Source of the DNA: Nitrosospira multiformis ATCC 25196
GTDB lineage: Bacteria; Pseudomonadota; Gammaproteobacteria; Burkholderiales; Nitrosomonadaceae
Length of the DNA stretch: 32,000 nucleotides
Assembly: GCF_000196355.1 (NCBI RefSeq)
Contig: NC_007614.1
Location: 2,910,001 to 2,942,000, forward strand
Direction of reading: 5' to 3'
Shown: piece by piece, positions 6,261 to 23,035 of the stretch
Position numbering within the stretch: the stretch's first letter is position 1
How the letters are laid out: the number at the start of each line of letters is the position of its first letter
The notes under the pieces: model-generated
Databases searched by the model: none
The model's input: only the letters and a program-made list of their open reading frames with translations
What the model was told of the DNA's origin: nothing
Program-made: the position numbers and the translations under genes

Positions 6261-7445
6261 TTACACTGATTGCCCTGCCGCATAACCCGATGACCAGGCC
6301 CACTGGAAATTGAAGCCCCCCAGTTGGCCCGTGACATCGACGACTTCTCCCACGAAATAAAGGCCGGGTACTTTTTTCGATTCCATCGTTTTGGAAGAAA
6401 GCTCGGCAGTATCGATGCCTCCAAGGGTTACTTCCGCCTTTTTATAGCCGGCGGTGCCGCTCGGAATAACCTGCCAGGCATGCAATTGAGGAGCCAGTTG
6501 CCTCAAGCTCTTGTTGCCATACTGGTTTACAGGTGTTTCCGGGAGCCCACCCATCATTGCACCCAGCCAGGCCTCTGCAAACCGCCGGGGCAGATGCTGC
6601 GCTAACAGATTGGATAGCAGGACCCCGCTGTGTCTGCGATCGCGCAACCAATCGTCTGCATCCAGTTCAGGTAACAGGTTGATATGGATCGGATCTCCCG
6701 GCCGCCAGTATGAGGAAATCTGGAGGATTGCAGGCCCGCTCAGACCCCGATGCGTGATCAGCAGATTTTCTCTAAAATGCGCGCCGTTACAGCTCACTAT
6801 TGTATCGAGCGCAATTCCCGTGAGCCCTGAAAAAGCGGATAACTGTTCCGGCGCAAAAGTCAGCGGTACCAGGGCGGGACGTAGCGCCGTAACGTTTATG
6901 CCGAACTGTTCTGCGATGCGATAGCCAAAAGGACTGGCGCCGATTTGCGGAATGGAAAGACCTCCGGTCGCGATTACCAGCGCGTCTGCCATCACTTTGC
7001 TACAGCTGGTTTCCAATACGAATCCAGTATTGCCGGAGTCCCGGTCTATGCGGCTTACCTCGCAGGGCATTTGAAAGATGACTCCGGCTGCCTCGCATTC
7101 ACTGCGCAGCATGTCGATGATTTGCTGCGAGGCCTCATCGCAAAATAGCTGTCCCAGCTTTTTTTCGTGATAACGGATGCGGTGCTTTTCCACCAGCTCT
7201 ATGAAGTGGCGAGGAGTGAAACGTGCAAGTGCGGATCGGCAGAAATGCGGATTCTGCGACAGAAAATTTTCCGGAACAGTGTGGCGATTCGTGAAATTAC
7301 ACCGCCCCCCTCCCGAGATACGGATTTTTTCCGCCAGTTTGCTGGCATGATCCACCAGCAACACACTTCGTCCACGCTTTCCCGCTTCCATTGCGCACAT
7401 CATGCCGGCTGCGCCAGCGCCTATTACGACGACATCTTTCTTCAA
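6261..7445 (-). CDS. NAD(P)/FAD-dependent oxidoreductase, HI0933/YhiN (BaiN-like) family
   Basis: Dinucleotide fold KKDVVVIGAGAAGMMCA, family signature ISGGGRCNFTN, C-terminus GGFNFQWAWSSGYAAG. The start is set at TTG 7445-7443, the only start codon just before the GxGxxG motif. The 478-aa ORF-track version overlaps the upstream gene and is an artefact. Confidence 0.85.
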   Translation of the reverse strand: MKKDVVVIGAGAAGMMCAMEAGKRGRSVLLVDHASKLAEKIRISGGGRCNFTNRHTVPENFLSQNPHFCRSALARFTPRHFIELVEKHRIRYHEKKLGQLFCDEASQQIIDMLRSECEAAGVIFQMPCEVSRIDRDSGNTGFVLETSCSKVMADALVIATGGLSIPQIGASPFGYRIAEQFGINVTALRPALVPLTFAPEQLSAFSGLTGIALDTIVSCNGAHFRENLLITHRGLSGPAILQISSYWRPGDPIHINLLPELDADDWLRDRRHSGVLLSNLLAQHLPRRFAEAWLGAMMGGLPETPVNQYGNKSLRQLAPQLHAWQVIPSGTAGYKKAEVTLGGIDTAELSSKTMESKKVPGLYFVGEVVDVTGQLGGFNFQWAWSSGYAAGQSV

Positions 7446-7479
7446 TTGCGGTGCTTGGGGGAAAATGGGCCTTGCGGAC

Positions 7480-8121
7480 TTACCCGCGTTCTGTTGCAGG
7501 CTTGCGCCATACACTGGCCAGCCAGGGTTGCTGCTCGCGTGGAAGGCCTGTGGGGCGATAGTAATGAGCAAGCTCGACGAAACCCGCGCCGGACATATAG
7601 CGCCTCCAGCCATCGATATCGTGATAGACGCAATAACGCCCCTGGTTCCAGCCCTCCTCGTTATTCCCGCGGGGGTTGGAGCTGAACAGCACTCCACCCG
7701 GTTTCAGCGTTGCCCACAGTTCTTTTAGCACGCGCGGAAGTTCAACACTCGGAACATGAAACAGGGAGGCATTCGCAAATATGCCATCAAAGTGTTCCTC
7801 AGGCAGATCGAGCCGGAGAAAGTCCTGCTGCCATATCTCGCAGCCGCTATGGTTAGCCGCCATTTCGGCAAGCCGCGTTGCACCTTCCAGCCCGATCGCC
7901 ACATGACCGAGATCGGTAAAAGATTTCAGGTCGCGTCCGGGGCCGCAACCCAGATCCAGTATCTTGAAGGGTGGAGGACTTTCGATGTGGCGCAGCAATG
8001 CAGCAATATTTTGGCTGACATCGTGGTCTTTGGTAGCCTCCCAGAACGCTTCGGCTCTTTCGTTGTAACTGTTCAGGACAAGATGGGAGAGTTTTCTGAG
8101 ATCCGCTGAATCGGTTTTCAC
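7480..8121 (-). CDS. Class I SAM-dependent methyltransferase
   Basis: 213 aa. Motif I ILDLGCGPGRD, motif II FDGIFANASLFHV, motif III LKPGGVLFSS. GTG start at 8121 with no clear SD, so the start is uncertain. Confidence 0.8.
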   Translation of the reverse strand: MKTDSADLRKLSHLVLNSYNERAEAFWEATKDHDVSQNIAALLRHIESPPPFKILDLGCGPGRDLKSFTDLGHVAIGLEGATRLAEMAANHSGCEIWQQDFLRLDLPEEHFDGIFANASLFHVPSVELPRVLKELWATLKPGGVLFSSNPRGNNEEGWNQGRYCVYHDIDGWRRYMSGAGFVELAHYYRPTGLPREQQPWLASVWRKPATERG

Positions 8122-8193: not shown

Positions 8194-8964
8194 TTACTCT
8201 CTGGCAATACCCAGCAATGCGCCCCGAGCCTGAAGATCAATCATGATCTTCTCGCCGCCCTGCATCACGACTTCGGGGGACGGATGCCTGCTTTCGGCCG
8301 TGATGATTTCAAGAGCGGCATGCCCGGTATGCTCTTCCAGCGCAAGCAGATCTATCAGACGCGCGGTAAAGGCGTTGATTTCTGAAAATTGAATCTCATC
8401 ATCCGCGTCACGAAACAGCAGCAAGTAAGTTGTTGCCGGAGTGATGCGGGCGCGTGGGCGGATATGATGAACTGGCCAATGATAGCAAAGATTGGCAAGC
8501 ACCGGATTCAAAAGAGGCCGCCCCTCGAGCAGATTACCGGCGCTATCGATCGTCTTCCAATCGGGCATGTCCGTTGAGGTGGACAATGCCAGTTCCACCC
8601 ATTCGTAGTGCGCCAGCTCCAGGAGGAATCCCGGATAGTTTTCAGGGATGACGCCTTTACTCCCTAGAAATTCTATAAACTCACCGGCTATCTGATGGAA
8701 AAGGGGAGAACGGCTACGATGCGCAATGAGAAAAGCGCGCACCAGCCTTGACCATCGCCGCGGCCCCAGCACATCTCGAGTCACCGGAAAGCATCTGAGA
8801 AGAAAACTGTCGAGATTCTCGTAAACCAGTCTGCTGTATATGCCCATCCGCCGCGCATCGAGTCCAGATGGAACAGGCTTTGCCCGGGGATCGCGAAGGT
8901 GCGCAGTGAAGGCGTACTGGAAGCGCTGAAATTCAGGTGGCTGAGGCATCGCCTGAATCCGCAT
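8194..8964 (-). CDS. DUF2063-type partner protein of an MNIO enzyme (HvfC/BufC-like)
   Basis: N-terminus QRFQYAFTAHLRDP...GMGIYSRLVYENLDSFLLRCFPVTRDVLGPRRWSRLVRAF...SPLFHQIAGEFIEFL matches the DUF2063 pattern. Its start overlaps the DUF692 gene by 32 nt (17 nt if Met6 at 8949 is used). Confidence 0.8.
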   Translation of the reverse strand: MRIQAMPQPPEFQRFQYAFTAHLRDPRAKPVPSGLDARRMGIYSRLVYENLDSFLLRCFPVTRDVLGPRRWSRLVRAFLIAHRSRSPLFHQIAGEFIEFLGSKGVIPENYPGFLLELAHYEWVELALSTSTDMPDWKTIDSAGNLLEGRPLLNPVLANLCYHWPVHHIRPRARITPATTYLLLFRDADDEIQFSEINAFTARLIDLLALEEHTGHAALEIITAESRHPSPEVVMQGGEKIMIDLQARGALLGIARE

Positions 8965-9784
8965 GCTGTGCCTGGATCAGCGCGATATGTAGCACTTCCC
9001 GCATCAACTGCTCGAGCGGAGGAATATTGAAGTCACGCTCGAGCAAAGTCGGCGCAACCCCGTGCATTCCGTAGGTTTGATCCAGCAGCGACCATACCGG
9101 ATCGATTACATCGGCTCCGTGAGTATCGATGATAAGATTCTCCGCCTCCTTATGATGCCCGGCCATGTGCATATACACGATGCGATCGGAAGGCAACGCC
9201 CGGATGAAGTCCACGGGATCATAGTCGTGGTTAATGCTGTTGACGTAGACGTTATTGACATCGAGATGAAGATCGCAATCCGCCTCCAGCAAAACAGCCC
9301 GGATAAAGTCCAATTCACTCATATCGCTGATAGGCGAAGCAACATAAAACGATGCATTTTCCAATGCGATACGCCGCTCGAGAATATCCTGGGTACGGCG
9401 AACGCGTTCAGCGACATATTTTACCGCTTCCTCCGTAAAAGGGATCGGAAGCAGATCGTACAGGTGACCGTCATCGGAGCAGTAGGAAAGATGTTCCGTA
9501 TAAAGAAGTACCCGGTGCTGATCGAGGAACTGGCGAATCTTTTGCAGCAGAATTTCATCCAGGGGAGCAGGACCACCGATTGAAAGGGAAAGGCCATGAC
9601 AGACAAAAGGATAGCGCTCGGTAAAAAAAAGCAGATCCCGTGCCGCCCCCCCTCCAAGGTCGATCCAGTTCTCGGGGGCGATCTCGAAAAAATCGATGGT
9701 GGCGGGGACACCGCTTTTCAGCGCAGGAATGAGCTCCCGCCGGAAGCCCAGCCCCACGCGGGCGAGGCGTGGGAACTGTTGCAT
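8933..9784 (-). CDS. DUF692 / MNIO (multinuclear non-heme iron oxidative) enzyme, MbnB/HvfB/BufB-like
   Basis: 283 aa with the conserved DUF692 TIM-barrel blocks: FFEIAPENW, HGLSLSIGG, YTEHLSY, IALENASFY, LHLDVNNVYVNS, MHMAGHH, IDTHGADV, TLLERDFNIP. Confidence 0.88.
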   Translation of the reverse strand: MQQFPRLARVGLGFRRELIPALKSGVPATIDFFEIAPENWIDLGGGAARDLLFFTERYPFVCHGLSLSIGGPAPLDEILLQKIRQFLDQHRVLLYTEHLSYCSDDGHLYDLLPIPFTEEAVKYVAERVRRTQDILERRIALENASFYVASPISDMSELDFIRAVLLEADCDLHLDVNNVYVNSINHDYDPVDFIRALPSDRIVYMHMAGHHKEAENLIIDTHGADVIDPVWSLLDQTYGMHGVAPTLLERDFNIPPLEQLMREVLHIALIQAQHADSGDASAT

Positions 9785-9790
9785 GTCCAG

Positions 9791-10204
9791 TTATTTCTTC
9801 ATCTGCCCATGGGGCGCTGCCGTTCCGCCACCGGACTTGCTTTTTGCAAAGCTGTCCGCTTCCGCCGGATCGACGGCTCCATCCTTGTTCGCGTCAATCT
9901 TGTCGAAGATGCCTTCGTGATGCTTGATAAATTCTTCCTTGGTCACTTTATTGTCTTTGTTCTTGTCCGCCAGCGACATGCCGCAATTTCCTTCCGCCGC
10001 TTTTGCGCCTGCCCCATATTTACTGGGGTCCACCCGGTCGGCATAAGCCACTATATAACGCTCGTTTAACGACTCCATGACGAAAGGATTGCTTGCCTTG
10101 CTGTCCGCCTCACTGTCGCCCGCGAAAACAATGGGAGAGGCGCCGAGGCCGGTAGCAAGGACCGACCCTATGACGATGGAAATCTTGGATTTTTTGTCTT
10201 GCAC
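9791..10204 (-). CDS. Secreted EF-hand protein; candidate MNIO substrate (HvfA/bufferin-like precursor)
   Basis: 137 aa with a GTG start. An aaggag SD ends 8 nt upstream of the start. Sec signal MQDKKSKISIVIGSVLATGLGASPIVFA|GD. The single Cys (C74) lies in AAEGNCGMS. Two canonical EF-hand loops are DKNKDNKVTKEE and DANKDGAVDPAE, and the His/Met-containing tail is GGGTAAPHGQMKK. The gene ends 6 nt before the DUF692 start. Confidence 0.75.
   Translation of the reverse strand: MQDKKSKISIVIGSVLATGLGASPIVFAGDSEADSKASNPFVMESLNERYIVAYADRVDPSKYGAGAKAAEGNCGMSLADKNKDNKVTKEEFIKHHEGIFDKIDANKDGAVDPAEADSFAKSKSGGGTAAPHGQMKK
9860..9967 (-). other. Pair of EF-hand Ca-binding loops (residues 80-91 and 104-115)
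   Basis: Both loops fit D-x-[DN]-x-D-[GN]-x-[IV]-x-x-x-E, and the inter-loop helix is FIKHHEGIFDKI. Confidence 0.65.
9974..9994 (-). other. EGNCGMS motif; predicted MNIO modification site (Cys74 codon at 9985-9983)
   Basis: Reverse strand reads gaa gga aat tgc ggc atg tcg. It resembles the EGKCG core of the HvfA / bufferin-2 class. Confidence 0.5.
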
Positions 10205-10248
10205 AGTTGGTTCTCCTTGAATCTGGAAAAAATATTATGTCACAGTTT

Positions 10249-10282
10249 GGCAGGAACGGGAGCCGATTCCTCTGATCCTGCC
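10249..10282. promoter_or_regulatory. Inverted repeat upstream of the precursor gene (candidate operator)
   Basis: ggcagga (10249-10255) and tcctgcc (10276-10282) are separated by 20 bp, with an inner ggaa...ttcc pair. It lies 45-80 bp upstream of the GTG start and next to a cataat -10-like hexamer (minus strand, 10239-10234). Confidence 0.3.
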
Positions 10283-10366
10283 GCGCATCGGGAACAAAGA
10301 ACTCCCCCGGAGAGACTTGCAGCAAAATAATGTATTTATTTCTTGCGGGGGTATTCAAGGACTAAA

Positions 10367-10381
10367 AATTCTGCAAGAATT
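10367..10381. promoter_or_regulatory. Perfect 15-bp palindrome aattct-gca-agaatt in the divergent intergenic region
   Basis: Read directly from the sequence. The surroundings are AT-rich. No regulator can be assigned. Confidence 0.25.
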
Positions 10382-10553
10382 CGTGTGCCCCATATGCCCC
10401 CTATATGTCCACAGGGAGTTGAATGTGAAGAGGCTGCGGTTTTGTCATGCACAGGAGGATGAGAACCTCATTCCTAAGCTAAATTGTGGGATTTCCATTC
10501 CTGGCCAGAACCTTGAGGCTTCTGCCAACCGTCTTGCTCTCGGAGCGCATCAA

Positions 10554-10582
10554 CTGAACCGGAGATGAGTTATCTGTATAAT
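10554..10582 (+). promoter_or_regulatory. Candidate sigma70 promoter of dksA
   Basis: Perfect TATAAT at 10577-10582, with a weak -35 ctgaac at 10554-10559 (17-bp spacer). It sits about 65 nt upstream of the dksA ATG. Confidence 0.35.
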
Positions 10583-10646
10583 GGGTTGTTTTTAATAGCA
10601 GTTGCATTGTTACACGTCACCCAGCAATGGAAAGGAAATACTGACT

Positions 10647-11069
10647 ATGCCGCAAGAAATGTATAAACAAGCCACTCCCTACATACCCTCGAAGGGAGAA
10701 AGTTACATGAGTGCCAAGCAGCTTATGCATTTCCGCAATATTCTGGAAGGCATCAAGTTTGAATTGGGACAGGATATCGATCGCACGGTTCACACTATGC
10801 AGGATGAAGCCACCATATTTGCTGATCCTAACGACCGCGCCAGCCAGGAGTCGGATATGGCTCTTGAATTAAGAAATCGTGACCGCGAACGTAAGCTGAT
10901 CAAAAAGATAGAGGAAACGATTGCAAAAATAGATACTGGAGATTACGGCTATTGCGAAAGCTGCGGGGTGGAAATCGGTTTAAAGCGCCTTGAAGCCCGT
11001 CCCACCGCTACACTCTGCATCGACTGCAAGACCTTGGATGAAATAAGGGAAAAGCAAGTCGCGAAATAA
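10647..11069 (+). CDS. dksA: RNA polymerase-binding transcription factor DksA
   Basis: MPQEMYKQ...[14 protein letters not shown]..., a coiled-coil with an acidic tip, and the C4 zinc finger [28 protein letters not shown] 10647 follows a ggaaaggaaa SD-like stretch. The ORF-track start at 10602 is a TTG extension. Confidence 0.93.
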
Positions 11070-13965: not shown

Positions 13966-14739
13966 TCAAGAACGATCAGAGCCGATGGCTTGCCGCCTGG
14001 CGACATATCCACCAAGCGAGGGCGCGGGTGAATGAACGGCGCGCATTTCCGCATCGGCGTATCGTACTACGGTCGACAGGGTAGAGCGCGCGGCTCGCGC
14101 GTCCGATGCCAGCCGCAGGAGCGTGCCGAGAGTCAGCGCGCGCTTCAGCAACAGCCCCAGCAAGCGTCTCAGGTGAGGACTTCCGTCCGGTCGTACTGCC
14201 TCAAGCAGAACACGCGGGGGTGAGAAGTCGAGGGGATCTGAAATAGCGCGTACTACCATGAATGGCAATCCGGCATTCGTGGCAACTTCGGCGACTGCGC
14301 CGCTTTCCATATCTACTGCGTTCGCGCCGGTGGCTTCGGCCAGCTCGCGTTTTGCAGAAGTGGAGGTAAGCACCTTGCTGCTGGCAGCCAGGATTCCACC
14401 TGCCACATTCAGCTGATCGGGCAGGCATCCCAGCAGACGGGCGCGCCAATTCAAATCAACCGGCAGGAGACAACCGCCCGTATGGATCGACTCTGGCAGC
14501 ACCAACGCTCCCGAGTTCAGGCCTGCATGCAATGCGCCCGCAAAGCCGAAACTCATCAGTGCAGCAGCTCCTGCATTCTTCAGTCCGGTTGCGGCTGCAC
14601 CGGCCGCCTCTGCCCCCACTCCACACAGCCAGACGGCAGCGCCATTCCCGAGATCTGTCCTTTGATTGAAGGAGAGGCGCAATGGCGTTATGCAACCCGC
14701 CTCCATCCGCATGGCGACAATGATGCCGACCGCCGTCAC
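13966..14739 (-). CDS. hpnG: Hopanoid-associated phosphorylase HpnG (nucleoside phosphorylase fold)
   Basis: PNP/MTAN-like blocks VGIIVAMRMEA, GFAGAL, AVDMESGAVAEVA. Directly follows shc. GTG 14739 overlaps the shc stop as GTGA, which suggests translational coupling. The alternative is the ORF-track ATG at 14784, which overlaps shc by 49 nt. Confidence 0.8.
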   Translation of the reverse strand: MTAVGIIVAMRMEAGCITPLRLSFNQRTDLGNGAAVWLCGVGAEAAGAAATGLKNAGAAALMSFGFAGALHAGLNSGALVLPESIHTGGCLLPVDLNWRARLLGCLPDQLNVAGGILAASSKVLTSTSAKRELAEATGANAVDMESGAVAEVATNAGLPFMVVRAISDPLDFSPPRVLLEAVRPDGSPHLRRLLGLLLKRALTLGTLLRLASDARAARSTLSTVVRYADAEMRAVHSPAPSLGGYVARRQAIGSDRS

Positions 14740-16697
14740 CCGGGGAACTTCCGGTTCAATGCATGAAATCGGGTCAATGCCCATACCGGGAAATATTTCG
14801 TATACCCGTAGTACTTGAGGTAGAAAACCCGCGGGAAGCCGGGAGCGGTAAACCAGGGCTCATGCCAGAGCCCGTCGCTGTCCTGTTCCCGCAAGAGGTA
14901 GGCAATTCCCCGGTGAACCTCATGACTTCGCCATTCGCCGGCTCCCATCAGTGCAAGCAGTGCCCATGCGGTATGAAAAGAAGTACTGGTATGAAACTGG
15001 CCTGCCTGCTGGGGGGAAAGATAGCTGTCGTTACTTTCTCCCCATCCGCCATCCTCCCGCTGCACGGATTTGAGCCAGTGCACCGCGCGTCGGATGGCAG
15101 GATGACCGGCATCTATCCCGGCCAGACGGAAGGCCTCCAGCACAGACCACGTTCCATAGATGTAATTGCTGCCCCAGCGGCCGAACCAGGCGCCACTGGC
15201 CTCCTGTTCATTGAAGAGGTATGCCAGACTCCGTTCCAGCGCCTGTTTATGCCTGGACTGGCCGTACAAGGCGAGAAAACCTGCACAGCGGGCGGAAACA
15301 TCACTGGTGGGAGGATCAAGGAGCGCCCCATGATCGGCAAACGGGATCTCGTTGAGATAGTAATACGTATTGTCGCTGTCGAAAGCCGCAAACCCCCCAT
15401 TGCTGGACTGCATCCCCGCCAGCCAGTCGGCGGCCCGGCTGATGCTTTCCTGATAAGCCTTAGGGTCGGCCTGGTACAGTGCCCACGCCACCGCAGCCGT
15501 GTCGTCGAGATCGGGATAGTGGGGATTTGCATACTGAAAAGCCCAGCCCCCGCCCGGTAATCCGGGATGATCTTCTTGCCAGTCCGCCGGCGCATCGAGC
15601 ACCTGACAGGGAACCAGCCAGTCGAGCGCTTTCCGGATGGGCTTCTGATCGACCTCCGTATCCTCCTGAAAGGCGAGACAGGTCAGGACGGTATCCCATA
15701 CTGGGGAAACACAGGGCTGGCACCAGGTACGCTCGCCTTCCTCCACCAGCAGCAGGCGCAGCGCCTTGCGGCATTGCTCCCGCGCGGGATGATCATATGG
15801 GTATCCAAGCAATGCCAGAGCTTCGCCGGCATTCACCATGGCAGGAAAGATCGCCCCCAGGCCTGAGTCGCCGTTCAGCCTTTCCACGATCCAGCTTTCC
15901 GCCCGCCGCAGCGCCAATCTGCGCACCCCTTGGGGTATGAAGGGTTCGAGCAGGGAGAGAGTGCGCTCGATCAGCAGAAACACGCGATTGAGCGCAGTAC
16001 GTACCGGAAAATAATTCCGCTCCTCCCCCGGAGGTACCGTAAACAATTCACGAATGGCGACTTTGCGCGGATTCGCCGCGCGCGCCTTCAGGCTGCACAG
16101 GATAGATAGCGGAACCATTACGGTCCGCGACCAGTATGCGACCTTGCTGGTATGGAATGGAAACCACTTGGGGAACAGTATGATTTCCACCGGCACAAAT
16201 GGCACGCCTCGCCAGGGAAGCTGGTCATACATGGCAAGCAGCAGGCGTGTAAATACATTTGCTCTCGCTGCGCCGCCATGTTTCAGAATTGCTGCACGCG
16301 CACGCACCATGTGGGGCGCGTCCGGGGAGTCCCCCACAATTTTCAGAGCATAATAGGCCTTGACCGAACAACTCAGATCGAATTCACCGCCGTAGTAGAG
16401 CGGCCAGCCTCCGTGCGCTACATCCTGTTTTTCACGAATAAAACGGGCAATCCTGACCTCCAGATCCAGGTCCACTTCATCCATGAAGTGCATCATCAGT
16501 ATATACTCGGCGGGAATCGTGCAATCGGCCTCCAATGGAAAGCACCAGTGGCCATCCTCCCTCTGCTGAGCCAGCAGCGCACCGCGTGCCGCTTCCAGTC
16601 CCGCTTTCAGCATTTTTTCGTCCATTGAGGGAGTATTGTTTGAGCCCGGGGATTGAGCTTGCAATGAAGTTCTCGCCATACCTCCGAATTTTTTCAT
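14736..16697 (-). CDS. shc: Squalene-hopene cyclase
   Basis: 653 aa. Catalytic DxDD in YPDLDDTAAV and repeated QW motifs (QREDGGWGE, QSSNGGFAAF, EQEASGAWFGRWG). The start is uncertain; Met7 at 16679 is an alternative. Confidence 0.95.
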   Translation of the reverse strand: MKKFGGMARTSLQAQSPGSNNTPSMDEKMLKAGLEAARGALLAQQREDGHWCFPLEADCTIPAEYILMMHFMDEVDLDLEVRIARFIREKQDVAHGGWPLYYGGEFDLSCSVKAYYALKIVGDSPDAPHMVRARAAILKHGGAARANVFTRLLLAMYDQLPWRGVPFVPVEIILFPKWFPFHTSKVAYWSRTVMVPLSILCSLKARAANPRKVAIRELFTVPPGEERNYFPVRTALNRVFLLIERTLSLLEPFIPQGVRRLALRRAESWIVERLNGDSGLGAIFPAMVNAGEALALLGYPYDHPAREQCRKALRLLLVEEGERTWCQPCVSPVWDTVLTCLAFQEDTEVDQKPIRKALDWLVPCQVLDAPADWQEDHPGLPGGGWAFQYANPHYPDLDDTAAVAWALYQADPKAYQESISRAADWLAGMQSSNGGFAAFDSDNTYYYLNEIPFADHGALLDPPTSDVSARCAGFLALYGQSRHKQALERSLAYLFNEQEASGAWFGRWGSNYIYGTWSVLEAFRLAGIDAGHPAIRRAVHWLKSVQREDGGWGESNDSYLSPQQAGQFHTSTSFHTAWALLALMGAGEWRSHEVHRGIAYLLREQDSDGLWHEPWFTAPGFPRVFYLKYYGYTKYFPVWALTRFHALNRKFPG

Positions 16698-16901
16698 GTA
16701 TTTTTACCTAGCGCCTCTTTAAAGTTTCAGGGAAGACCATATCGCAGGGGTGTGAGTGCAGCCATAAAAACTATTAAAAGCATGATTTTACTCGATTCTG
16801 CCTCGAAATCGGTACATCGTCGAGATTCATGCAAGGATGTTTATGGCAGATGCAGCGCCCGCTGGACAAGTGAAAGCAGCAGTTGAGATTTGATTAAAAT
16901 C

Positions 16902-17672
16902 TCATCGCAATGGCTCGGCCGCGGCCTCGTTCTGTACGGAATCCTCATCTGCGAATTCGTCCAGGCTTTCGGGCGGCGGGTCGCCATCATAGATCAAGTG
17001 CTTGCGCTGCTGTAAAAAACCTTCGCGAACGAAAAGATAGGGGTCCAGAGCGGCCTGGTCCCGAATACGCATGGGGCCGGACAATCGCGCCCGCCTGTCG
17101 ATGATACTTAAAACCGTGATTGGAGCTACCACCGCGCTGCTGGCAACAGTACCCGCATAAAACAAAAGGTTGCTGAAAACGCTCACAGGAATGCCGGGCG
17201 CATCCCGATAGCTGCTGGGGCCGATCAGAGGGACAAAAAGGTAGGAGCCGGTATCAACGCCCCAGACGCCGAGGGTCTGCCCGAAATCTTCATCATGCTG
17301 TGGCAACCCCATGGGCCCTGCCATGTCGAAGAGCCCGCCCAGGCCGATGGTCGAATTGACCGCAAAGCGAAGGGTGTCCTGGAATCCCTGCCGTACTTTA
17401 CCTTGCAGGAAAGCATTAAGAATAACATTGGGATATGCAAGGTTGTCGTAGAAATTGCCAATCGAACGCTGCAGGGGGTCGGGCACATGCTTTATATAAG
17501 CATCCGCAACCGGCGCCAGAACGGCGCGATCCACCTTGTCGGTAAAATTGTAAAACTGTCGATTGGCTCTTTCATTCGGATCGATCGTATCGATACTCGC
17601 ATCGTTCTTATGCAGCGCCGCGCAACCGGTAAACAGTGATATGCATGCCAACAACAGGAAGGAAGTTCGCAT
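16902..17672 (-). CDS. MlaA/VacJ family outer-membrane lipoprotein
   Basis: Lipobox MRTSFLLLACISLFTGC. Conserved VacJ blocks are DPNERANRQFYNFTDKVDRAVLAPVA, NLAYPNVILNAFLQGK, NSTIGLGGLFD and DFGQTLGVWG. ATG 17672 follows a ggtgg SD-like sequence. The ORF-track start at 17783 adds 37 residues. Confidence 0.85.
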   Translation of the reverse strand: MRTSFLLLACISLFTGCAALHKNDASIDTIDPNERANRQFYNFTDKVDRAVLAPVADAYIKHVPDPLQRSIGNFYDNLAYPNVILNAFLQGKVRQGFQDTLRFAVNSTIGLGGLFDMAGPMGLPQHDEDFGQTLGVWGVDTGSYLFVPLIGPSSYRDAPGIPVSVFSNLLFYAGTVASSAVVAPITVLSIIDRRARLSGPMRIRDQAALDPYLFVREGFLQQRKHLIYDGDPPPESLDEFADEDSVQNEAAAEPLR

Positions 17673-17794
17673 ATTTGCCACCATCCGTAAAGGGAAGGCT
17701 ATGTCCCTGTTAATCTGTCCCTCAGAATCAGAATCCGCATGGAAGGGGATGTCCACAAACCGCCACAGGTGCGAAGTATACAATTATTGCCGGA

Positions 17795-20467
17795 CTAACG
17801 CACAAATCGAGCCTTTGCCCCTGCGGCCGGCGCGCGCAGCAATGCAGGCAGTATCACCAGTGTACAGATAAGCGTAAAAGCCAGCCCCACGGTAAGCATT
17901 ATTCCCATACTCGCAGTGCCTCTGTGAGACGAGAACATCAGACTTGCGAAATCCACCAGCGCGGTCAGGGCGCTGTAAAAAATCGCCCGCGCAGTGCTGG
18001 TATGGATCAGGATCTCGCTTACCAGTTCATTATTCAGACTGCGATGCACCATATGCAGGCTGCTATCGATCCCCAGGCCAAGCAAAAGCGGGAGAGCAAT
18101 GATATTGGCAAAATTGAACGGAACATCCAGCAGGACTGTGAACGCAGCGGTAAACAGGCTGGACAGCAACAGCGGGAGCAGGACCAGCAGCATGTACTTT
18201 ACACTGCGCAACAACACCAGCAGGGCAACGATAATTCCAACGAGCGCAAGCAAAAACGCCTGCATGAAGGCGTGCACTACCGCCTCGCCCGCTTCAAGGG
18301 TCACCACTGGCGCTCCCGTCACTTCGGGCGCCACTTTCTGCACGCTTCGCACGAAGCGCCGCAATGCATTGTTGTCGTTCAGGTCTTCTGATGGATAAAT
18401 TGCCAAGCGATATTCGCCTGACTGGGCCTGCCAGCGGTTGCTCAACGATGGCGGCAGATCCTGCTCGCCAAACAGGTTGGCTTCCGTCGCCGTACGCAGG
18501 CTCTCCAGCGCCGCAGGCAACGTAACCAGCAGATCTCCCTCCAGGGACCGCAACAAGGCGACCTGGCCGGCAGGACTGGCTGTATCAAGCTGTTCAAACA
18601 GGGAGCTCAGGGATGACCTGAGCTTGCGTGCGGCCGGAACTGCCGCATGCTCCGGGCGTGCGGCAATAAAATTGTCCAGTGCGACGGTCAGTGCGTCGAG
18701 CGCCTCGCGCTGTTGCCGGAGGGAACTCTCCACGCGGCGATCCTGTCCCACCTCCGCGATCGGTCCCACGGTCAACGCCATTTCCTCGATGAGTTGCAGC
18801 TTTTCTTCCTGATTGGCCGGCACGAAGTCGGGGAGACTGACTACCTTCTCCACTTCGGGAAGCTTGCTCAATGCCTGCGTCAGACGGGCCAGTTCCTTCT
18901 TGTCTTCTGCCAGCGCCACGGAATGCCACGGCGAGAGATCGGGCTGCGCAAGGAGTTCACGAAAGGCCTGTATCGCTTTTCCCTTCTGATCCTGCAAATT
19001 CAGGAGATTGTAGTCGAACCGCACCTGAGGCAGCAGAAGAAGCGCGCCAATCGACGCGGCAAGCGTGGCGGCGTAGGTGAGTCTGTGCCACTTCAGGGAT
19101 AATTCCAGCACTCTGCCAACCGACGCTTTCGGGGGGGCACTTGCCTTGGCTTGCTGTCGTTTCGGGAGGTAACGCAGCAGGGCAGGCGCAACCGTAAGAG
19201 TTACCAGAAGACTGATAATCATGCCTGTGCCGGAGATGATGCCCAATTCCGCCACGCCGCTGTAATCTGTAGGAATGAACGCGTAGAAACCGATCGCGTT
19301 TGTGATTGTACAGGCAGTAAGCGCCGCGCCTGCATCCCCGCCTGAAACATGCAGCGCCTCGGTAGACGAGTTGCCGCTTTCCAGAACTTCGCGATAACGC
19401 AGCAGAAAGTGAATGGCGAAGTCGGCCCCCAGACCGATGTACAGCACGGCAAACGCAATGGAGATCAGGTTGACATGACCTACTGCGGCGGTGGCAAATG
19501 CCGCCGTAAGAATCAGGCCCATGGCGAGACACACCAGTACGTTGATGATCAGTCCGGGCGCTCGCATCGCAAAATAAAGAACCACGACAACCAGGATGAA
19601 GGTGATGATTCCTGCGTATTGCATGCCGAGCAGCGAACTGCTCAGTTCGTCATGCGATAACGCCACTTCCCCGGTAATACGCAGGCGGACTGCTCCATCC
19701 TCCGTAATTCCTGCATCGCCCGCCGCGGCGAATAGCGCGTTGATGGCCTGCTCCCCGGGAAACATCTGATCATAATTGAGCTTCGGCTTGGCTATGATCA
19801 ATTCCTGGTATTTGCTTTTTTGCGATTCGCCGCTGAAGAGGGCTTGCCACGACAACGCACGCGGCGCTCCTTCCAGTCTTGCTTTCATCGTGTCACTCAC
19901 TGCCCCCAGCACCGGACTGAGTTCCATGTCGCGGCCCTTCTGCAATTCCTCTATCGCGCCCGTCAGCACATCGGCGAAAGCCGCGAGCGTAGGATTTCCG
20001 GCAATATGGGCCATCAACGGCTGCGCGGCAGCCACACGGTCGGTTATGTGCTGCAGTTCCGCAACGCTTTCATAGAGCAGGCCATTGCGCGTGAAGAAGT
20101 CGCCTGCTGTCGGGGGATAGATATCCTCGAAATTGAGAGTGTCTTTTTTCAGCTGCGCGGCAAGGCGTTCGGTGGCCTGATGGACCTGCTCAGGCGTCGG
20201 CGCTTCCAGCACTACCAGAAGCGTGTCGACATCCTGCGGAAATGTCTTGTTGTAGTGGGTGATGTTGACACGAAACGGCAGATCCCTGGAGAGCATGTCG
20301 GTTGTGTCGGTATTCATGCCGAGATTGCGCGAGACGTAGATGCTGCATCCTGCGGAAATCAGCAGTGCTGTGAAAAGAACCCAGGCGCTATGACGATAGC
20401 AAACAGTGGCCCAAGCTGCAAAAATACGGTAGATGCGGCTTTCCGAGCCGTTGTCTGTTGTGGTCAT
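17795..20467 (-). CDS. hpnN: Hopanoid-associated RND/MMPL-type transporter HpnN
   Basis: 890 aa with two 6-TM bundles, each followed by a large periplasmic domain (RND/MMPL architecture). Located inside the hopanoid locus. Confidence 0.85.
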   Translation of the reverse strand: MTTTDNGSESRIYRIFAAWATVCYRHSAWVLFTALLISAGCSIYVSRNLGMNTDTTDMLSRDLPFRVNITHYNKTFPQDVDTLLVVLEAPTPEQVHQATERLAAQLKKDTLNFEDIYPPTAGDFFTRNGLLYESVAELQHITDRVAAAQPLMAHIAGNPTLAAFADVLTGAIEELQKGRDMELSPVLGAVSDTMKARLEGAPRALSWQALFSGESQKSKYQELIIAKPKLNYDQMFPGEQAINALFAAAGDAGITEDGAVRLRITGEVALSHDELSSSLLGMQYAGIITFILVVVVLYFAMRAPGLIINVLVCLAMGLILTAAFATAAVGHVNLISIAFAVLYIGLGADFAIHFLLRYREVLESGNSSTEALHVSGGDAGAALTACTITNAIGFYAFIPTDYSGVAELGIISGTGMIISLLVTLTVAPALLRYLPKRQQAKASAPPKASVGRVLELSLKWHRLTYAATLAASIGALLLLPQVRFDYNLLNLQDQKGKAIQAFRELLAQPDLSPWHSVALAEDKKELARLTQALSKLPEVEKVVSLPDFVPANQEEKLQLIEEMALTVGPIAEVGQDRRVESSLRQQREALDALTVALDNFIAARPEHAAVPAARKLRSSLSSLFEQLDTASPAGQVALLRSLEGDLLVTLPAALESLRTATEANLFGEQDLPPSLSNRWQAQSGEYRLAIYPSEDLNDNNALRRFVRSVQKVAPEVTGAPVVTLEAGEAVVHAFMQAFLLALVGIIVALLVLLRSVKYMLLVLLPLLLSSLFTAAFTVLLDVPFNFANIIALPLLLGLGIDSSLHMVHRSLNNELVSEILIHTSTARAIFYSALTALVDFASLMFSSHRGTASMGIMLTVGLAFTLICTLVILPALLRAPAAGAKARFVR

Positions 20468-20622
20468 GCTGGGGAAGCAATGTCGGGGAATCGATCCGTG
20501 CTTAGAGGATGGTTTCGGGGGTTAGCAGCGAACGAGGTAAAAAAGAATCCCGGTCGTTGGCGAAACAGAATGCAAAAAGGGAAACCTGAAGTCGGGCTTT
20601 TCCTTGGGTCCATCAAGCTGCC

Positions 20623-20706
20623 GTCATACCCGCGAAAGCGGTTATCCGGTTTTTTCAACGAAATAATATTATAAATCCGGTGGATTTCCGCTTTCACGGA
20701 AATGAC
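20623..20706. repeat. Inverted pair of REP-like palindromic units
   Basis: Unit 1 is gtcatacccgcgaaagcggttatcc (20623-20647). The reverse complement of unit 2 is gtcatttccgtgaaagcggaaatcc (20682-20706). They are separated by an AT-rich 34-bp spacer. Spurious ORFs across it read ...SYPRKRLSG... and MDFRFHGNDD.... Confidence 0.65.
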
Positions 20707-20880
20707 GATCAAGGTTTGGCCGGAAGGTTTCTGCCTCTTATTACAAGCCCCGCCCCTTTTGCCCATGCGGTTCTCTGGATGTCACCGATTTTATTCCGGG
20801 TGAAGCGGGCACGGGCTCGAAGTCCGGCGCGACAAGGGCTGGTGGGAAAAGTTGTTTCAAGATTGTCGTGAGAGCAGTGT

Positions 20881-21510
20881 TCAGTCTTTTCCTGCCTGCT
20901 CGATCTTCTGCTGGAGCATGTCGAGGAGCTTTGGGAAACCGTCGCGCTGAAGAATGGCCCTGTACTCGACCCGTTTCAGTGCCAGATCGCTGACACCGTC
21001 GGCCAGAATATTCACGATACGCCACCCATCCTTTCCTTGCCGCAGCATGTAGTCAAAGCGTACTGGCTCGCCGCCGGATTGAATCAACTTGCTACGTATC
21101 ATTACCTGCTCCCGGGGCATGGATTGACGCTCGAGAGACTCAAACCGCTCGCCGTCATATTCCTTGAACTGACTTGCGTAAGTAGCTATGCTCAGCTTGC
21201 GAAAAGTATCTGTAAAGGTACGCTGCTGCTCAGCGCTCAATTGGGTCCAGTTCGCTCCCAGCGACGTGCGCGCGATAAAATCAAGATCATGCGTCTGATT
21301 GATGACAGGAGCCAGCAATTCATAGCGTCCCTCATAGCCGAGCTTTGCGCCCTCGCGCATCGCCTTGATGAGTGCTTCCTGCAACTGTTTGACGACTTGT
21401 TCCGGCGTTCCCGACTCCTGGGTTTCGCTCCAGGAGGGAGACGCCGCCAGAAGCATCAGGACAATTATTTGAAGTTGCAGCAGTGACTTCAGTGCACTCA
21501 GGATCTTCAT
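20881..21510 (-). CDS. hpnM: MlaC/Ttg2D-family periplasmic lipid-binding protein (HpnM-like)
   Basis: Signal peptide MKILSALKSLLQLQIIVLMLLAASPSWS, then toluene-tolerance (MlaC) family features (DLDFIARTSLGANW..., FRKLSIATYASQF, DGWRIVNILADGVSDLALKRVEY). I chose the ATG at 21510. The ORF-track start at 21564 adds 18 residues. Confidence 0.8.
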   Translation of the reverse strand: MKILSALKSLLQLQIIVLMLLAASPSWSETQESGTPEQVVKQLQEALIKAMREGAKLGYEGRYELLAPVINQTHDLDFIARTSLGANWTQLSAEQQRTFTDTFRKLSIATYASQFKEYDGERFESLERQSMPREQVMIRSKLIQSGGEPVRFDYMLRQGKDGWRIVNILADGVSDLALKRVEYRAILQRDGFPKLLDMLQQKIEQAGKD

Positions 21511-21842
21511 GTTGATAATCTTATAGCAGTTTGTCCATGCACATGACTTGATGAGGCATCTCATCCGGCAATATTCCTTGCGATATTCGGCCAGCTGGGT
21601 TTTGCATCGAGTGGCCGATAGTTTCTATACCCCGGAAATCAGATACCCCCCGCGTGACGCTTCCACGATTACATCCCCCACCCCTTTAGCCTTTTGCCGC
21701 TCACGCCTGCGCACCCGGCAGGACGCCAGGTCCTGCCATTCATCGGACCCCCTCCGGTAAAGTTGTCTCGGGCAAACCAGCATGCATCGATTTTTAGGGC
21801 TGCCGGCTACACGCAGTGTCGCTGTTTCGGCAACGGCCAATG

Positions 21843-22952
21843 CTATCGCTCTACCTTGACCGGAATTCCCGCAAGCGTGGCCGGGGTTTGCAGTTCCTCT
21901 CGCGCCCATTTCGGCGTGGGCTCCGCCACCATCGGTCCGGTTGTTTTTGGTCCCCTGATGGAGGTGAGCAGGGCTTTCAGCGGATGCTGCAGCATATCTT
22001 CCACGGCTGTGGCTTCATAGCCGCAATGCGCCATGCATTGGGCACACTTCGGGTTGCTGCTGTTGCCATATTTATCCCAGGGAGTATCATCCAGCAGCTC
22101 CTGGAAACTGGATGCATACCCTTCATCCGGAAGCAGATAGCAGGGCTTTTGCCAACCGAAAATGTTGCGCGTCGGATTACCCCAGGGCGTGCACTGATAG
22201 TTCTGGTTACCCGCGAGAAAATCGAGATAAAGCGACGAGTGATTGAGCTTCCATTTACGGGTCTTGCCTATCTTGAAAATGCCCCTGAAGAGATTCTTGG
22301 TATCCTTCCCCTTAATGAAGATATCCTGCCTGGGAGCGCGCTCATAACTGAACCCGGGCGCGATCGTCGCACCCTCCACTCCCAGCTCCATCGCATAGTC
22401 GAGGAACTCCGCAACATCTTCCGGTGTTTCGCCCTGGAACAAGGTGCAATTGACGGTAACCCTGAATCCCTTGGCAACCGCCAGTTTTATAGCCTCAACC
22501 GCACGATCGAACACTCCGTCCTGACAGACAGAGGCGTCATGCCTTTCCTTCAGACCATCCAGATGAATGGAAAAGGTCAAATAAGGCGAAGGGGTATAGT
22601 CGTCAATCTTCTTCTTTAACAAAAGCGCATTGGTACACAGATAAACATATTTCCTGCGCGCAATGATGCCTCTGACAATCTCCGGCATTTCCTTATGTAT
22701 CAGTGGCTCCCCACCGGGGATGGAAACCATGGGGGCTCCACACTCATCGACCGCCTGCATGCATTCCTCATACGACATCCGCTTGTCCAGAATGTGGTCG
22801 GGATAATCGATCTTGCCGCAGCCGGCACAGGCCAGATTGCACCGGAACAGGGGCTCCAGCATCAAGACCATAGGATATTTTTTTACTCCTCCCAACTTTT
22901 GCTTGAGCAGATAAGTGCCGACAGCTATCTGTTGACGTAAAGGAACTCCCAT
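21843..22952 (-). CDS. hpnH: Adenosylhopane synthase, radical SAM protein HpnH
   Basis: MGVPLRQQIAVGTYLLKQKLGG..YPMVLMLEPLFRCNLACAGCGKIDYP carries the CxxxCxxC radical-SAM cluster. ATG 22952 is preceded by ggagga plus 7 nt. The ORF-track start at 22967 is a TTG extension. Confidence 0.92.
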   Translation of the reverse strand: MGVPLRQQIAVGTYLLKQKLGGVKKYPMVLMLEPLFRCNLACAGCGKIDYPDHILDKRMSYEECMQAVDECGAPMVSIPGGEPLIHKEMPEIVRGIIARRKYVYLCTNALLLKKKIDDYTPSPYLTFSIHLDGLKERHDASVCQDGVFDRAVEAIKLAVAKGFRVTVNCTLFQGETPEDVAEFLDYAMELGVEGATIAPGFSYERAPRQDIFIKGKDTKNLFRGIFKIGKTRKWKLNHSSLYLDFLAGNQNYQCTPWGNPTRNIFGWQKPCYLLPDEGYASSFQELLDDTPWDKYGNSSNPKCAQCMAHCGYEATAVEDMLQHPLKALLTSIRGPKTTGPMVAEPTPKWAREELQTPATLAGIPVKVER

Positions 22953-23035
22953 GTATAAATCCTCCAAAAAACTTCCGTAAACTTTATTAATGTCAGGTTG
23001 GGGTCACCTGATTTCTTCCTGTTGTTATGCAGGTG

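Follow-up and report, generated by a model that had tools for sequence, protein, structure and literature searches.

A three-gene operon of Nitrosospira multiformis ATCC 25196 (precursor, hvfB and hvfC) probably makes a protein-sized, RiPP-like metalloprotein, in which Cys74 of a secreted EF-hand protein would be modified by HvfB and HvfC and for which binding of both copper and Ca2+ is predicted. We put the probability of this reading at about 0.55, on the strength of sequence comparison and of analogy with characterised systems. The operon lies within the window, i.e., the whole stretch of 32,000 nt that was analysed. Direct observations are the gene order, the family assignments, the conservation seen in the motif and in the EF-hand ligands, and the joint loss of the cysteine and the maturase genes.

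The precursor gene and its product

The precursor gene is on the minus strand at 9791..10204 (GTG start, stop codon included) and encodes a 137-aa secreted EF-hand protein that scores above the cut-offs of Pfam EF-hand models. The translated aa sequence is identical to ABB75840.1/WP_011381839.1, annotated as “EF hand” in N. multiformis ATCC 25196. Along the chain are found the cleavage site VFA↓G (residues 26-29), AAEGNCGMS (69-77), DKNKDNKVTKEE (80-91), HH (95-96), DANKDGAVDPAE (104-115) and PHGQMKK (131-137). C74 is the only Cys, and a cut after VFA28 leaves a mature protein of 109 aa. The preliminary description had listed the same reading frame, secretion signal, lone C74, pair of EF-hand loops, HH and tail, and was right in every detail.

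A Shine-Dalgarno sequence, AGGAGA, is found 8 nt 5′ of the GTG (10213..10218, minus strand) and is kept in an alignment of upstream sequences (A4). The same alignment brought out a conserved 14-mer, TGTGACATAATATT (10231..10244, minus strand), which has exact matches 27-40 nt upstream of the gene start at 19 Nitrosospira/Nitrosovibrio loci, including some with another precursor gene upstream. Judged from its sequence (TGa-CATAAT), the 14-mer is probably an extended -10 promoter element of the single-Cys gene. A promoter and terminator scan of the minus strand gave nothing useful, and an Rfam scan of positions 9700-10700 returned a single chance match to a miRNA, below threshold.

Residues 1-28 (10121..10204, minus strand) read as a candidate signal peptide, with a Lys-rich n-region, the hydrophobic core ISIVIGSVLATGL of 13 residues, and a c-region with Gly, Ser and Pro that ends in GASPIVFA↓G. 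Inspection of the N-terminus found neither a lipobox nor a twin-Arg motif. In orthologues an A-x-A is found just ahead of (A)(D/E)NPF, and the family cleavage motif is ASA↓A(D/E)NPF. The segment may instead be an uncleaved anchor that tethers the protein to the inner membrane, facing the periplasm. The corresponding segment of related proteins is called a predicted TM helix in the 2025 MNIO survey, the first paper on the Pseudomonas protein EfhP also predicted a TM segment, and the hydrophobic stretch of the precursor reaches ~21 residues when the c-region is counted. However, the family has a conserved small-x-small cleavage motif after a short hydrophobic core, the c-region contains Gly, Ser and Pro, the EfhP segment was later reassigned as a signal peptide by SignalP 5, and the signal peptide of HvfA is cleaved in E. 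coli (PMC11252979). An anchor is considered improbable.

Maturase genes and neighborhood

The stop codon of the precursor gene is separated by only 6 nt from the start of a gene on the same strand (8933..9784) for WP_011381838.1, an HvfB-family MNIO maturase (PF05114, 2.4e-102; NF003818, 425 bits, cut-off 360). The protein matches PDB 3bww at E 7e-76. It falls below the cut-offs of the BufB model (259 bits, cut-off 310) and of the MbnB model TIGR04159 (33.9 bits, cut-off 325). The third gene, also on the minus strand (8194..8964), shares 32 nt with the end of hvfB and encodes the HvfC partner WP_011381837.1, with DUF2063 and NGO1945_C domains by Pfam and 258 bits against NF050145 (cut-off 142). 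The candidate put forward earlier, a protein-sized secreted EF-hand precursor with its Cys in a conserved EGxCG, is found next to an HvfB/HvfC pair. Given these two adjoining families and the invariance of E71, G72, C74 and G75 in 28 orthologues, the pattern seen in the precursor is not due to chance.

Two further genes were considered as tailoring enzymes and rejected, a methyltransferase (7480..8121) and an HI0933-like flavoprotein (6261..7697). Both are found 3′ of hvfC in Nitrosospira/Nitrosovibrio alone, a group in which the synteny extends to dksA, and both are absent from locus L007 and from all other lineages. The precursor-hvfB-hvfC cluster has no DoxX gene; the DoxX of this genome is encoded elsewhere. 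Searching the literature with the Nmul locus tags, or for ammonia oxidisers together with DUF692, found nothing relevant.

Conservation of the EGNCG core

The core E71-G-N-C74-G75 spans 9980..9994 on the minus strand, with the Cys74 codon, the predicted 5-thiooxazole site, at 9983-9985. C74 lies 6 residues before EF-hand loop 1. E71, G72, C74 and G75 are invariant in the 28 orthologues of alignment A1, down to 47% identity, so that the conservation of Cys74 and EGxCG proposed earlier as a check on the motif is borne out. In an alignment of the wider family (A3), 129 of 136 sequences have Cys in the C74 column, and a Cys at position -6 from loop 1 is present in 360 of 390 family sequences, which makes this the most conserved Cys position of the family. 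At least one G-x-C-G is kept in all 46 MNIO-adjacent relatives. Synonymous turnover is evident at 22 single-Cys loci, where E, G72 and G75 use 2, 4 and 4 codons, respectively, with the residues constant.

Taken together, these comparisons argue strongly for C74 as the residue on which the maturase acts. The lone Cys is very probably converted into a heterocycle, predicted to bind copper, by the two enzymes encoded directly downstream.

Loss of the cysteine at loci devoid of hvfBC

At four loci (L020, L026, L027 and L031) hvfBC has been deleted in place. Synteny with the MNIO-bearing loci is retained, from the precursor gene to nrdA, and two HvfC fragments remain in L020. All four display a Cys to Tyr change. 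Fisher's exact test of Cys loss against hvfBC loss gives p = 2e-4, a value that is not a true probability since the loci are phylogenetically non-independent. His95-His96 is replaced by Y-N in four Cys-less orphans only, which probably represent one lineage, and the covariation of His95/96 with Cys74 is not strict family-wide; this co-loss is no more than a weak hint. The Tyr variants offer ready natural controls.

These loci also bear on a different explanation, whereby the precursor serves in the periplasm as an EF-hand sensor or buffer for Ca2+, in the manner of EfhP and with an unmodified Cys74, HvfBC acts on another substrate, and the adjacency to hvfB is a relic of tandem duplication. 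Other candidate substrates are at hand. A multi-Cys paralogue, preA, is found in tandem upstream of the single-Cys gene at 9 Nitrosospira loci, and the 2025 MNIO survey lists a second Buf_EGKCG protein, WP_011380357.1, in the same genome; thus HvfBC could be kept mainly for one of these. Of at least four Cys positions in the ancestor, the clade has already lost three, EfhP has Ca2+-related phenotypes, and the Tyr variants persist without Cys or maturase, which points to a precursor function that is independent of modification. However, the Cys is replaced exactly where hvfBC is deleted, the retained Cys sits at the best conserved Cys position of the family, and its E-G-x-C-G frame is invariant despite the synonymous turnover. 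In addition, the single-Cys gene is the only precursor gene beside hvfBC in the window and at L001, L002, L004, L011, L015-L018 and L021. An unmodified Cys74 is considered unlikely, and modification by HvfB/HvfC is the preferred reading.

EF-hand loops, tail and structure modeling

Loop 1, DKNKDNKVTKEE (residues 80-91; 9932..9967, minus strand), lies in a Pfam EF-hand_1 match at 76-94, and loop 2, DANKDGAVDPAE (residues 104-115; 9860..9895, minus strand), in an EF-hand_5 match at 99-115. Scores for the precursor are 35.7 for EF-hand_5 (cut-off 25.9), 32.4 for EF-hand_1 (25.4) and 27.0 for EF-hand_6 (25); the pair model EF-hand_7 reaches 23.5, below its cut-off of 30. Positions 1-5 of the EF-hand_1 profile would fall on EGNCG. 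The ligands of loop 1 are D80, N82, D84 and E91, with D80, D84 and E91 invariant in 136 sequences, and its position 6 is Asn here and Gly in most orthologues. Loop 2 has invariant D104, G109 and E115 and nearly invariant N106 and D108 in the same sequences. As for the EF-hand positions singled out beforehand for alignment, positions 1, 5 and 12 of the loops proved invariant and the position 3 ligands invariant or nearly so. A lanmodulin-like reading was rejected (NF053806, 16.7 bits, cut-off 135).

His95-His96 (9917..9922, minus strand) lies in the helix that joins the two EF-hands and offers candidate extra metal ligands; 126 of the 136 sequences have H96. On the N-terminal side, a block of the form NPF..L..(G)Y..AYADRVDPSKYG (10013..10090, minus strand) has an invariant F41 and nearly invariant L46 and Y50 (136 sequences). 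Most of the family has Cys at the position of Y63 (C 64, Y 36, A 19 of 136), and by this alignment Y63 is a relic, formed by a change of K-C-G to K-Y-G. The tail P-H132-G-Q-M135-K-K (9794..9814, minus strand) appears as a relic of the family C-terminal motif KCGEGKCGGMKK, with His in a Cys column (C 97, H 30 of 136); G133, M135 and K136 are common to the family. A further column, that of G127, has Cys in 86 of the 136 sequences.

An AF2 model from the 28-sequence alignment was unusable (pLDDT 51.6). With the 136-sequence alignment pLDDT rose only to 56.7, and the model contains three helices (76-79, 89-103 and 113-122). This model is poor, and no structural claims are made for the geometry of Cys74. 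A Foldseek search with it against PDB found nothing significant, the top matches being EF-hand proteins (polcalcins) at E ~0.3.

Place in the family

The preliminary description had suggested a possible new protein-sized class. This does not hold, as EF-hand/EGKCG chimaeras have been in print since 2025 and the survey tables contain both this protein and an orthologue. WP_011381839.1 is entered as Buf_EGKCG with the MNIO WP_011381838.1 and the DUF2063 protein WP_011381837.1, and the orthologue MBA4142552.1 (P0020) is listed in the EF-hand chimaera group. By their description, the chimaeras begin with a signal or TM segment, which is followed by a short region with EGKCG and then by two EF-hand_5 domains, and their genes lie upstream of MNIO and DUF2063 genes. 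The precursor resembles them in its short EGKCG-type region, the lack of 17-residue repeats, the EF-hand pair and the MNIO/DUF2063 linkage. The survey contains no single-Cys analysis and no experiments, and it was the only work, a bioinformatic one, found in a literature search on MNIO together with EF-hands.

Most of the chimaeras that were recovered have 3-8 Cys, located on both sides of the EF-hand pair, and the Nitrosospira clade has one. According to the alignments, the clade is one that retains a single site of at least four ancestral Cys sites, with Tyr63 and His132 at others. This retention seems to be an undescribed aspect of the family, and the protein is best seen as a pared-down member of a class already described. 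In a profile search of 1.84 billion representatives, the single-Cys clade collapsed to about one cluster at 50% identity; other single-Cys types were found in the same search, the output of which was swamped by generic multi-EF-hand proteins.

With one Cys site retained, the precursor is missed by the NCBI HvfA models. NF050137 (KCGExKCG_twice) and NF050188 (HvfA) do not match it even at E<=10; the multi-motif relatives L053 and P0057 match NF050137 above the cut-off. Tandem KCGExKCG repeats are absent from the precursor, which has a single EGNCG copy. Single-motif members thus escape both NCBIfam models, and their annotation goes no further than “EF hand” or “hypothetical protein”.

Possible mechanism and significance

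The 137-aa pre-protein would be made in the cytoplasm, where the iron enzyme HvfB, together with HvfC, would oxidise Cys74 of E-G-N-C-G to a 5-thiooxazole. The ring nitrogen and exocyclic sulfur of the heterocycle would form a chelating group for soft metals. Sec would then export the modified protein in unfolded form, and cleavage after VFA28 would remove the signal peptide. Once in the periplasm, which is rich in Ca2+, the two EF-hand loops may bind Ca2+ and the C-terminal half may fold. The heterocycle would cap the N-terminus of the entering helix of EF-hand 1, which is very short. One Cys per chain does not allow the canonical two-heterocycle Cu(I) site within the precursor. Thus in the Nitrosospira clade, with one predicted heterocycle where relatives have 3-8 Cys, a Cu(I) site would need completion by other ligands, possibly side chains (Met76, His95/96, His132/Met135), a second copy of the protein or a partner protein.

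A modified Cys74 that does not serve copper should also be considered. The heterocycle could adjust the conformation of EF-hand 1 or its affinity for Ca2+, act as a ligand for another metal or take part in redox chemistry. The bis-heterocycle Cu(I) site that has been proposed for HvfA is out of reach of a lone heterocycle, the site would lie directly at the entering helix of EF-hand 1 (helix 76-79 of the model), the 32,000-nt window has no copper-related genes, and the 2025 survey proposes roles beyond copper for the EF-hand chimaeras. However, all characterised products of HvfB- and BufB-type enzymes are copper ligands, and conserved Met and His surround the site. In addition, related clusters elsewhere are flanked by genes for the copper chaperone PCuAC and a TonB-dependent receptor, as well as by an ECF sigma/anti-sigma pair. 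A role other than copper handling is regarded as distinctly unlikely.

Coupling of copper to Ca2+ binding, as proposed in the preliminary description, is a plausible hypothesis. A more specific form is speculative and quite improbable: a lone thiooxazole at the EF-hand 1 N-cap might form a hybrid Cu(I) site with the side chains of His95/His96, Met76 and His132/Met135, its geometry dependent on Ca2+-driven opening of the EF-hand pair. If true, an ammonia oxidiser would have, in its periplasm, a chaperone or sensor for copper that is gated by calcium, and the repeated retention of Cys74 alone, seen in several lineages, would identify this Cys as the smallest unit of the family that can function.

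The host depends on copper for AMO, and any periplasmic protein that handles copper is therefore physiologically relevant. The chimaeras make up a sizeable subfamily of predicted MNIO substrates, known so far from bioinformatic description, and EfhP, a virulence-linked protein of P. aeruginosa, shares their gene context in published descriptions. The Nitrosospira protein, with its three-gene operon, a single candidate target Cys and a single EF-hand pair, is the simplest test case that nature offers. It could reveal whether a lone site in a folded-domain protein is modified by enzymes of the HvfB type, whether one thiooxazole suffices for copper, and whether Ca2+ and copper binding interact.

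Comparison with known systems

Among the closest known systems is HvfA/oxazolin of nontypeable Haemophilus influenzae, matured by HvfB and HvfC (PMC11252979; bioRxiv 10.64898/2026.07.17.739211). Every Cys that HvfA has in its EGKCG motifs is modified by HvfB with HvfC, and the modified product binds Cu(I), the data fitting one Cu(I) per heterocycle pair (PMC11252979). The product is now assigned as 5-thiooxazole, the change from Cys being -4 Da with a chromophore at ~300 nm. The Nitrosospira system is similar in its maturase families, both above equivalog cut-offs, and in its predicted E-G-K-C-G-type target, and its N-terminus reads as a candidate Sec signal peptide. However, HvfA has 95 aa, three AEGKCGEGKCG repeats with 6 modified Cys and no EF-hands, whereas the precursor has one motif, in a cluster without DoxX. 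The preliminary description had ascribed EGKCG-like cores to HvfA and bufferin-2; this is correct for HvfA/oxazolin (Buf_EGKCG) and not for bufferin-2, which belongs to Buf_6/12Cys.

EfhP (PA4107 of P. aeruginosa) is compared here through published text on its gene and protein. Its gene is directly upstream of those for DUF692 (PA4106) and DUF2063 (PA4105) proteins, and the protein is N-terminally targeted and periplasmic with two EF-hands, as is predicted for the precursor. Its Kd for Ca2+ is 13.7 uM, and its phenotypes are related to Ca2+ and to virulence. In that text all biochemistry is on E. coli-expressed protein, and co-expression with PA4106/PA4105 is not described. The 2025 survey table flags the precursor as Buf_EGKCG but not EfhP.

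Bufferins 1 and 2 (DUF2282 and Buf_6/12Cys, with BufB/BufC) are also protein-sized MNIO substrates with a signal peptide, their Cys are converted to 5-thiooxazoles, and the proteins have a role in copper stress. They form a different precursor family; the Nitrosospira precursor has no DUF2282 match and its MNIO is below the BufB cut-off. Methanobactin (MbnA/MbnB/MbnC) differs in being a small secreted peptide with a leader peptide and two oxazolone/thioamide pairs, and the MNIO described here fails the MbnB model. The two systems are nevertheless alike in that an MNIO and a partner protein act on Cys, or are predicted to do so here, the methanobactin product being a copper-binding N,S chelating group, and in that both hosts depend on a copper monooxygenase, pMMO in the one and AMO in the other.

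Candidate precursor gene and encoded protein

The precursor ORF at 9791..10204 (minus strand) begins with a GTG codon, and an AGGAGA Shine-Dalgarno sequence is present 8 nt upstream. The translated product is identical to ABB75840.1/WP_011381839.1 from Nitrosospira multiformis ATCC 25196, whose only annotation is "EF hand" or "hypothetical protein". The features listed in the preliminary description of this DNA are all found where it had placed them, and the observation is confirmed. The only Cys is residue 74, within AAEGNCGMS (residues 69-77); VFA|G at residues 26-29 leaves a mature part of 109 aa; and the EF-hand loops DKNKDNKVTKEE (residues 80-91) and DANKDGAVDPAE (residues 104-115) are followed by the tail PHGQMKK (residues 131-137), with an HH pair at residues 95-96. 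Three Pfam EF-hand models exceed their gathering thresholds, and NCBI's HvfA models give no match. The N-terminus displays neither a twin-Arg motif nor a lipobox.

Conservation of the Cys74 motif

Residues E71, G72, C74 and G75 are invariant in 28 orthologues with identities down to 47%, as are the EF-hand ligand positions, the AYAD(R)VDP.KY block and the final KK. The check proposed earlier, conservation of EGxCG and of the EF-hand ligand positions among homologues, thus gave a positive outcome. Across 22 loci of the single-Cys type, E71, G72 and G75 are encoded by 2, 4 and 4 synonymous codons, respectively, with the residues unchanged, and this codon turnover indicates that selection acts on the amino acids. 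In a wider-family alignment the C74 column is Cys in 129/136 sequences. A Cys exactly six residues before EF-hand loop 1 is present in 360/390 family sequences and is the best-conserved Cys position in the whole family.

Maturase genes and their surroundings

The precursor gene forms an operon with two maturase genes. The MNIO (DUF692) gene, hvfB, starts 6 nt past the precursor stop codon and encodes a 283 aa protein that matches PF05114 at 2.4e-102 and the NCBIfam HvfB equivalog at 425 bits (cut-off 360); scores against the BufB, ApyH, ChrH and MbnB models each fall below the respective cut-off. The nearest solved structure is that of the Haemophilus somnus DUF692 protein 3bww (E 7e-76). The hvfC gene overlaps the end of hvfB, and its 256 aa product has the DUF2063 and NGO1945_C domains (258 bits, cut-off 142). 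The translations of both maturases lack an N-terminal hydrophobic segment, thus any action on the precursor must be cytoplasmic and precede export.

Downstream of hvfC lie a methyltransferase gene and a flavoprotein gene, which, like dksA on the other side, are syntenic only in Nitrosospira/Nitrosovibrio; the two downstream genes were rejected as members of the system, as they are missing from related clusters of other genera. The longest ORF of the HI0933-like flavoprotein gene (6261-7697, minus strand) shares ~218 nt with the methyltransferase gene and is matched by Pfam from residue 88 onwards; translation probably begins at a site further downstream.

Housekeeping and hopanoid genes make up the remainder of the window, and none is copper-related. 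The region 13966-22967 (minus strand) is likely a hopanoid gene set unrelated to the precursor. By Pfam scan it has an MMPL transporter (17795-20467), a radical SAM/DUF3463 protein (21843-22967) and MlaA and MlaC genes, all on the minus strand; a nucleosidase-like ORF (13966-14784, minus strand) and a squalene-hopene cyclase-like ORF of 653 aa (14736-16697, minus strand) were read from their translations alone, with no family-model scan.

Origin of the single-Cys form

The family consensus consists of a signal peptide, A(E/D)NPF..L..GYMVA, K.GEGKCG..K.GEGKCGM, EF-hand 1, EF-hand 2 and GKCGEGKCGGMKK, and most sampled members contain 4-6 Cys. The form with a single Cys is essentially confined to the Nitrosospira/Nitrosovibrio clade, and at 50% identity it forms about one cluster among the 1.84 billion representatives searched. 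In the 136-sequence alignment, the column of Y63 (K-Y-G) is Cys (K-C-G) in 64 sequences, that of G127 is Cys in 86, and that of H132 (P-H-G-x-M-K-K) is Cys (K-C-G-G-M-K-K) in 97. With His in a Cys column, the Gly-rich tail that ends in PHGQMKK is a relic of the C-terminal twin motif. Judged from these alignments, the Nitrosospira clade has lost all but one of the ancestral modification sites, which numbered at least four.

A lone Cys exactly six residues before EF-hand 1 is also found in other lineages (P0353, P0413, P0438 and L040; also L081), and the reduction was independent in the first four. Some of these other single-Cys lineages carry GYGEKR-type repeats and His-rich tails. On the short contig that carries P0353, the next gene downstream is oppositely oriented, and no MNIO gene follows P0353 there.

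A 3-4-Cys EF-hand paralogue immediately precedes the single-Cys gene within the cluster in nine other genomes of Nitrosospira (L003, 5362-5745; L005 and L006, 5437-5820; L007, 5498-5869; L008, 5127-5510; L009; L010; L013; L019), and truncated remnants are found in three more (L012, L014, L028). No such paralogue is present at the locus in the window, at L001 and L002 (all N. multiformis), or at several others. Published tables (PMC12452194) list a second protein of the same family, termed Buf_EGKCG, and a DoxX protein elsewhere in the ATCC 25196 genome (WP_011380357.1 and WP_011380954.1), with only one MNIO; WP_011380357.1 may be another HvfBC substrate.

The tandem paralogues and WP_011380357.1 lend some weight to the main alternative, whereby the single-Cys protein is an unmodified Ca2+ sensor and HvfBC serves a multi-Cys paralogue. 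However the retained Cys motif is strictly invariant, and in many genomes the single-Cys gene is the sole precursor adjoining hvfBC.

Loss of Cys together with hvfBC

Loci were scanned with one genome per species, giving 80 loci. In 46 of these, hvfB and hvfC come next after the EF-hand relative, and a G-x-C-G motif is present once or more in every one (46/46). Twelve full-length relatives have no adjacent MNIO gene, and in 5/12 Tyr replaces Cys (EDKYGMS, GG.YGMS). Full flanks are available for L020, L026, L027 and L031, four of the five Tyr loci, and all four are syntenic with MNIO-bearing Nitrosomonadaceae loci of the order precursor-hvfB-hvfC-nrdA (L022, L023, L030, L034, L035). In the Tyr loci nrdA begins only 420-730 nt past the precursor gene (precursor at 6001, nrdA from about 6816-7125; L020, 6001-7124), and the L020 gap has two HvfC fragments (E 3e-7 and 1e-3) and no HvfB. 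The synteny, the short gap and the fragments show that hvfBC was deleted in place while the EF-hand protein persisted with Tyr substituted for Cys. A 2x2 test gives p = 2e-4, which serves as an illustration rather than a probability, as the loci are phylogenetically related. The HH pair is also changed, to YN, in L026, L027, L031 and L033.

Other orphan copies retain Cys. Four of them share a metagenome-assembled genome with an MNIO cluster (L024/L023, L025/L022, L038/L035, L040/L017), thus these four could be modified in trans.

The persistence of Cys-less descendants without a maturase is compatible with an unmodified Ca2+ sensor, but the Cys replacements coincide exactly with the loss of hvfBC, and that alternative is considered unlikely. 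Motif conservation and the co-loss of Cys with the maturase genes give the earlier reading of this protein as a precursor good support from comparative genomics. Modification of Cys74 by HvfB/HvfC is favored, with a probability of roughly 55%. The single-Cys precursor system is an attractive minimal system for experiments.

Probable regulatory elements and copper context

The 14-mer TGTGACATAATATT (10231-10244, minus strand) is perfectly conserved in 19 loci, 27-40 nt ahead of the start of the single-Cys gene, although the encoded proteins share only about 50-60% identity. It resembles an extended -10 promoter, thus the single-Cys gene probably has its own promoter even where another precursor gene precedes it. 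An inverted repeat, GAATTCT-TGC-AGAATT(C/T) (10367-10382, minus strand), is exact in 13 Nitrosospira/Nitrosovibrio loci. Its distance to the dksA start is roughly constant (about 155-255 nt), but that to the precursor gene is not, and it is probably a dksA regulatory site.

Thiobacillus-type and related loci have ECF sigma factor and zf-HC2 anti-sigma genes upstream and a PCuAC copper chaperone gene downstream, which a TonB-dependent receptor gene adjoins in two loci (L042, L046); an ECF sigma factor gene is upstream of the cluster in Xanthomonadaceae. The loci concerned are L029, L039, L041, L042, L043 and L046, and also L049, L053, L055, L056, L063 and L066. These neighbor genes support a copper link for the family as a whole; none of the ECF sigma/anti-sigma, PCuAC or TonB-dependent receptor genes is present at the N. 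multiformis locus.

Proposed mechanism

By analogy with HvfABC, Cys74 would be oxidized to a 5-thiooxazole in the cytoplasm, the precursor exported unfolded via Sec, and the signal peptide removed after VFA28. The EF-hands would be largely empty at cytoplasmic Ca2+ levels, and would bind Ca2+ and fold in the periplasm. A weak AF2 model (pLDDT 56.7) has helices at residues 76-79, 89-103 and 113-122, and residues 30-75 are disordered. With a helix at 76-79, the heterocycle would cap the one-turn entering helix of EF-hand 1. Since one heterocycle cannot form a bis-heterocycle site, a Cu(I) site would need more ligands, for which Met76, His95/96 and His132/Met135 are candidates, or else a second chain or a partner.

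Comparison with known systems

The preliminary description had suggested a possible new class of protein. This class is already in a July 2025 survey (Microb Genom, PMC12452194), which defines the "Buf_EGKCG/oxazolin" family and tabulates WP_011381839.1 itself as Buf_EGKCG of GCF_000196355.1, with WP_011381838.1 (DUF692) and WP_011381837.1 (DUF2063). There the N-terminal parts of EF-hand/EGKCG chimaeras are reported as disordered. A full-text search for MNIO with EF-hand returned only this survey, and no experimental work on any such chimaera was found.

EfhP of P. aeruginosa (PA4107) is an EF-hand protein encoded in an operon with, and upstream of, DUF692 (MNIO) and DUF2063 genes. It binds Ca2+ with a Kd of 13.7 uM at about one site, and SignalP 5 predicts a signal peptide. 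The Ca2+ biochemistry used E. coli-made protein, and the available portions of the source describe no co-expression of PA4106/PA4105. Unlike WP_011381839.1, EfhP has no Buf_EGKCG flag in the survey table.

In H. influenzae, HvfB with HvfC modifies all six Cys in the AEGKCGEGKCG repeats of HvfA, and the modified protein competes for Cu(I) (PMC11252979). The modification was at first described as oxazolone/thioamide and is presently assigned as 5-thiooxazole. The Cu(I) data are consistent with one Cu(I) for every two modified residues, whereas the N. multiformis precursor, with one Cys, has no bis-heterocycle site alone. This single-site, relic-bearing precursor is a variant of a known but uncharacterized kind.
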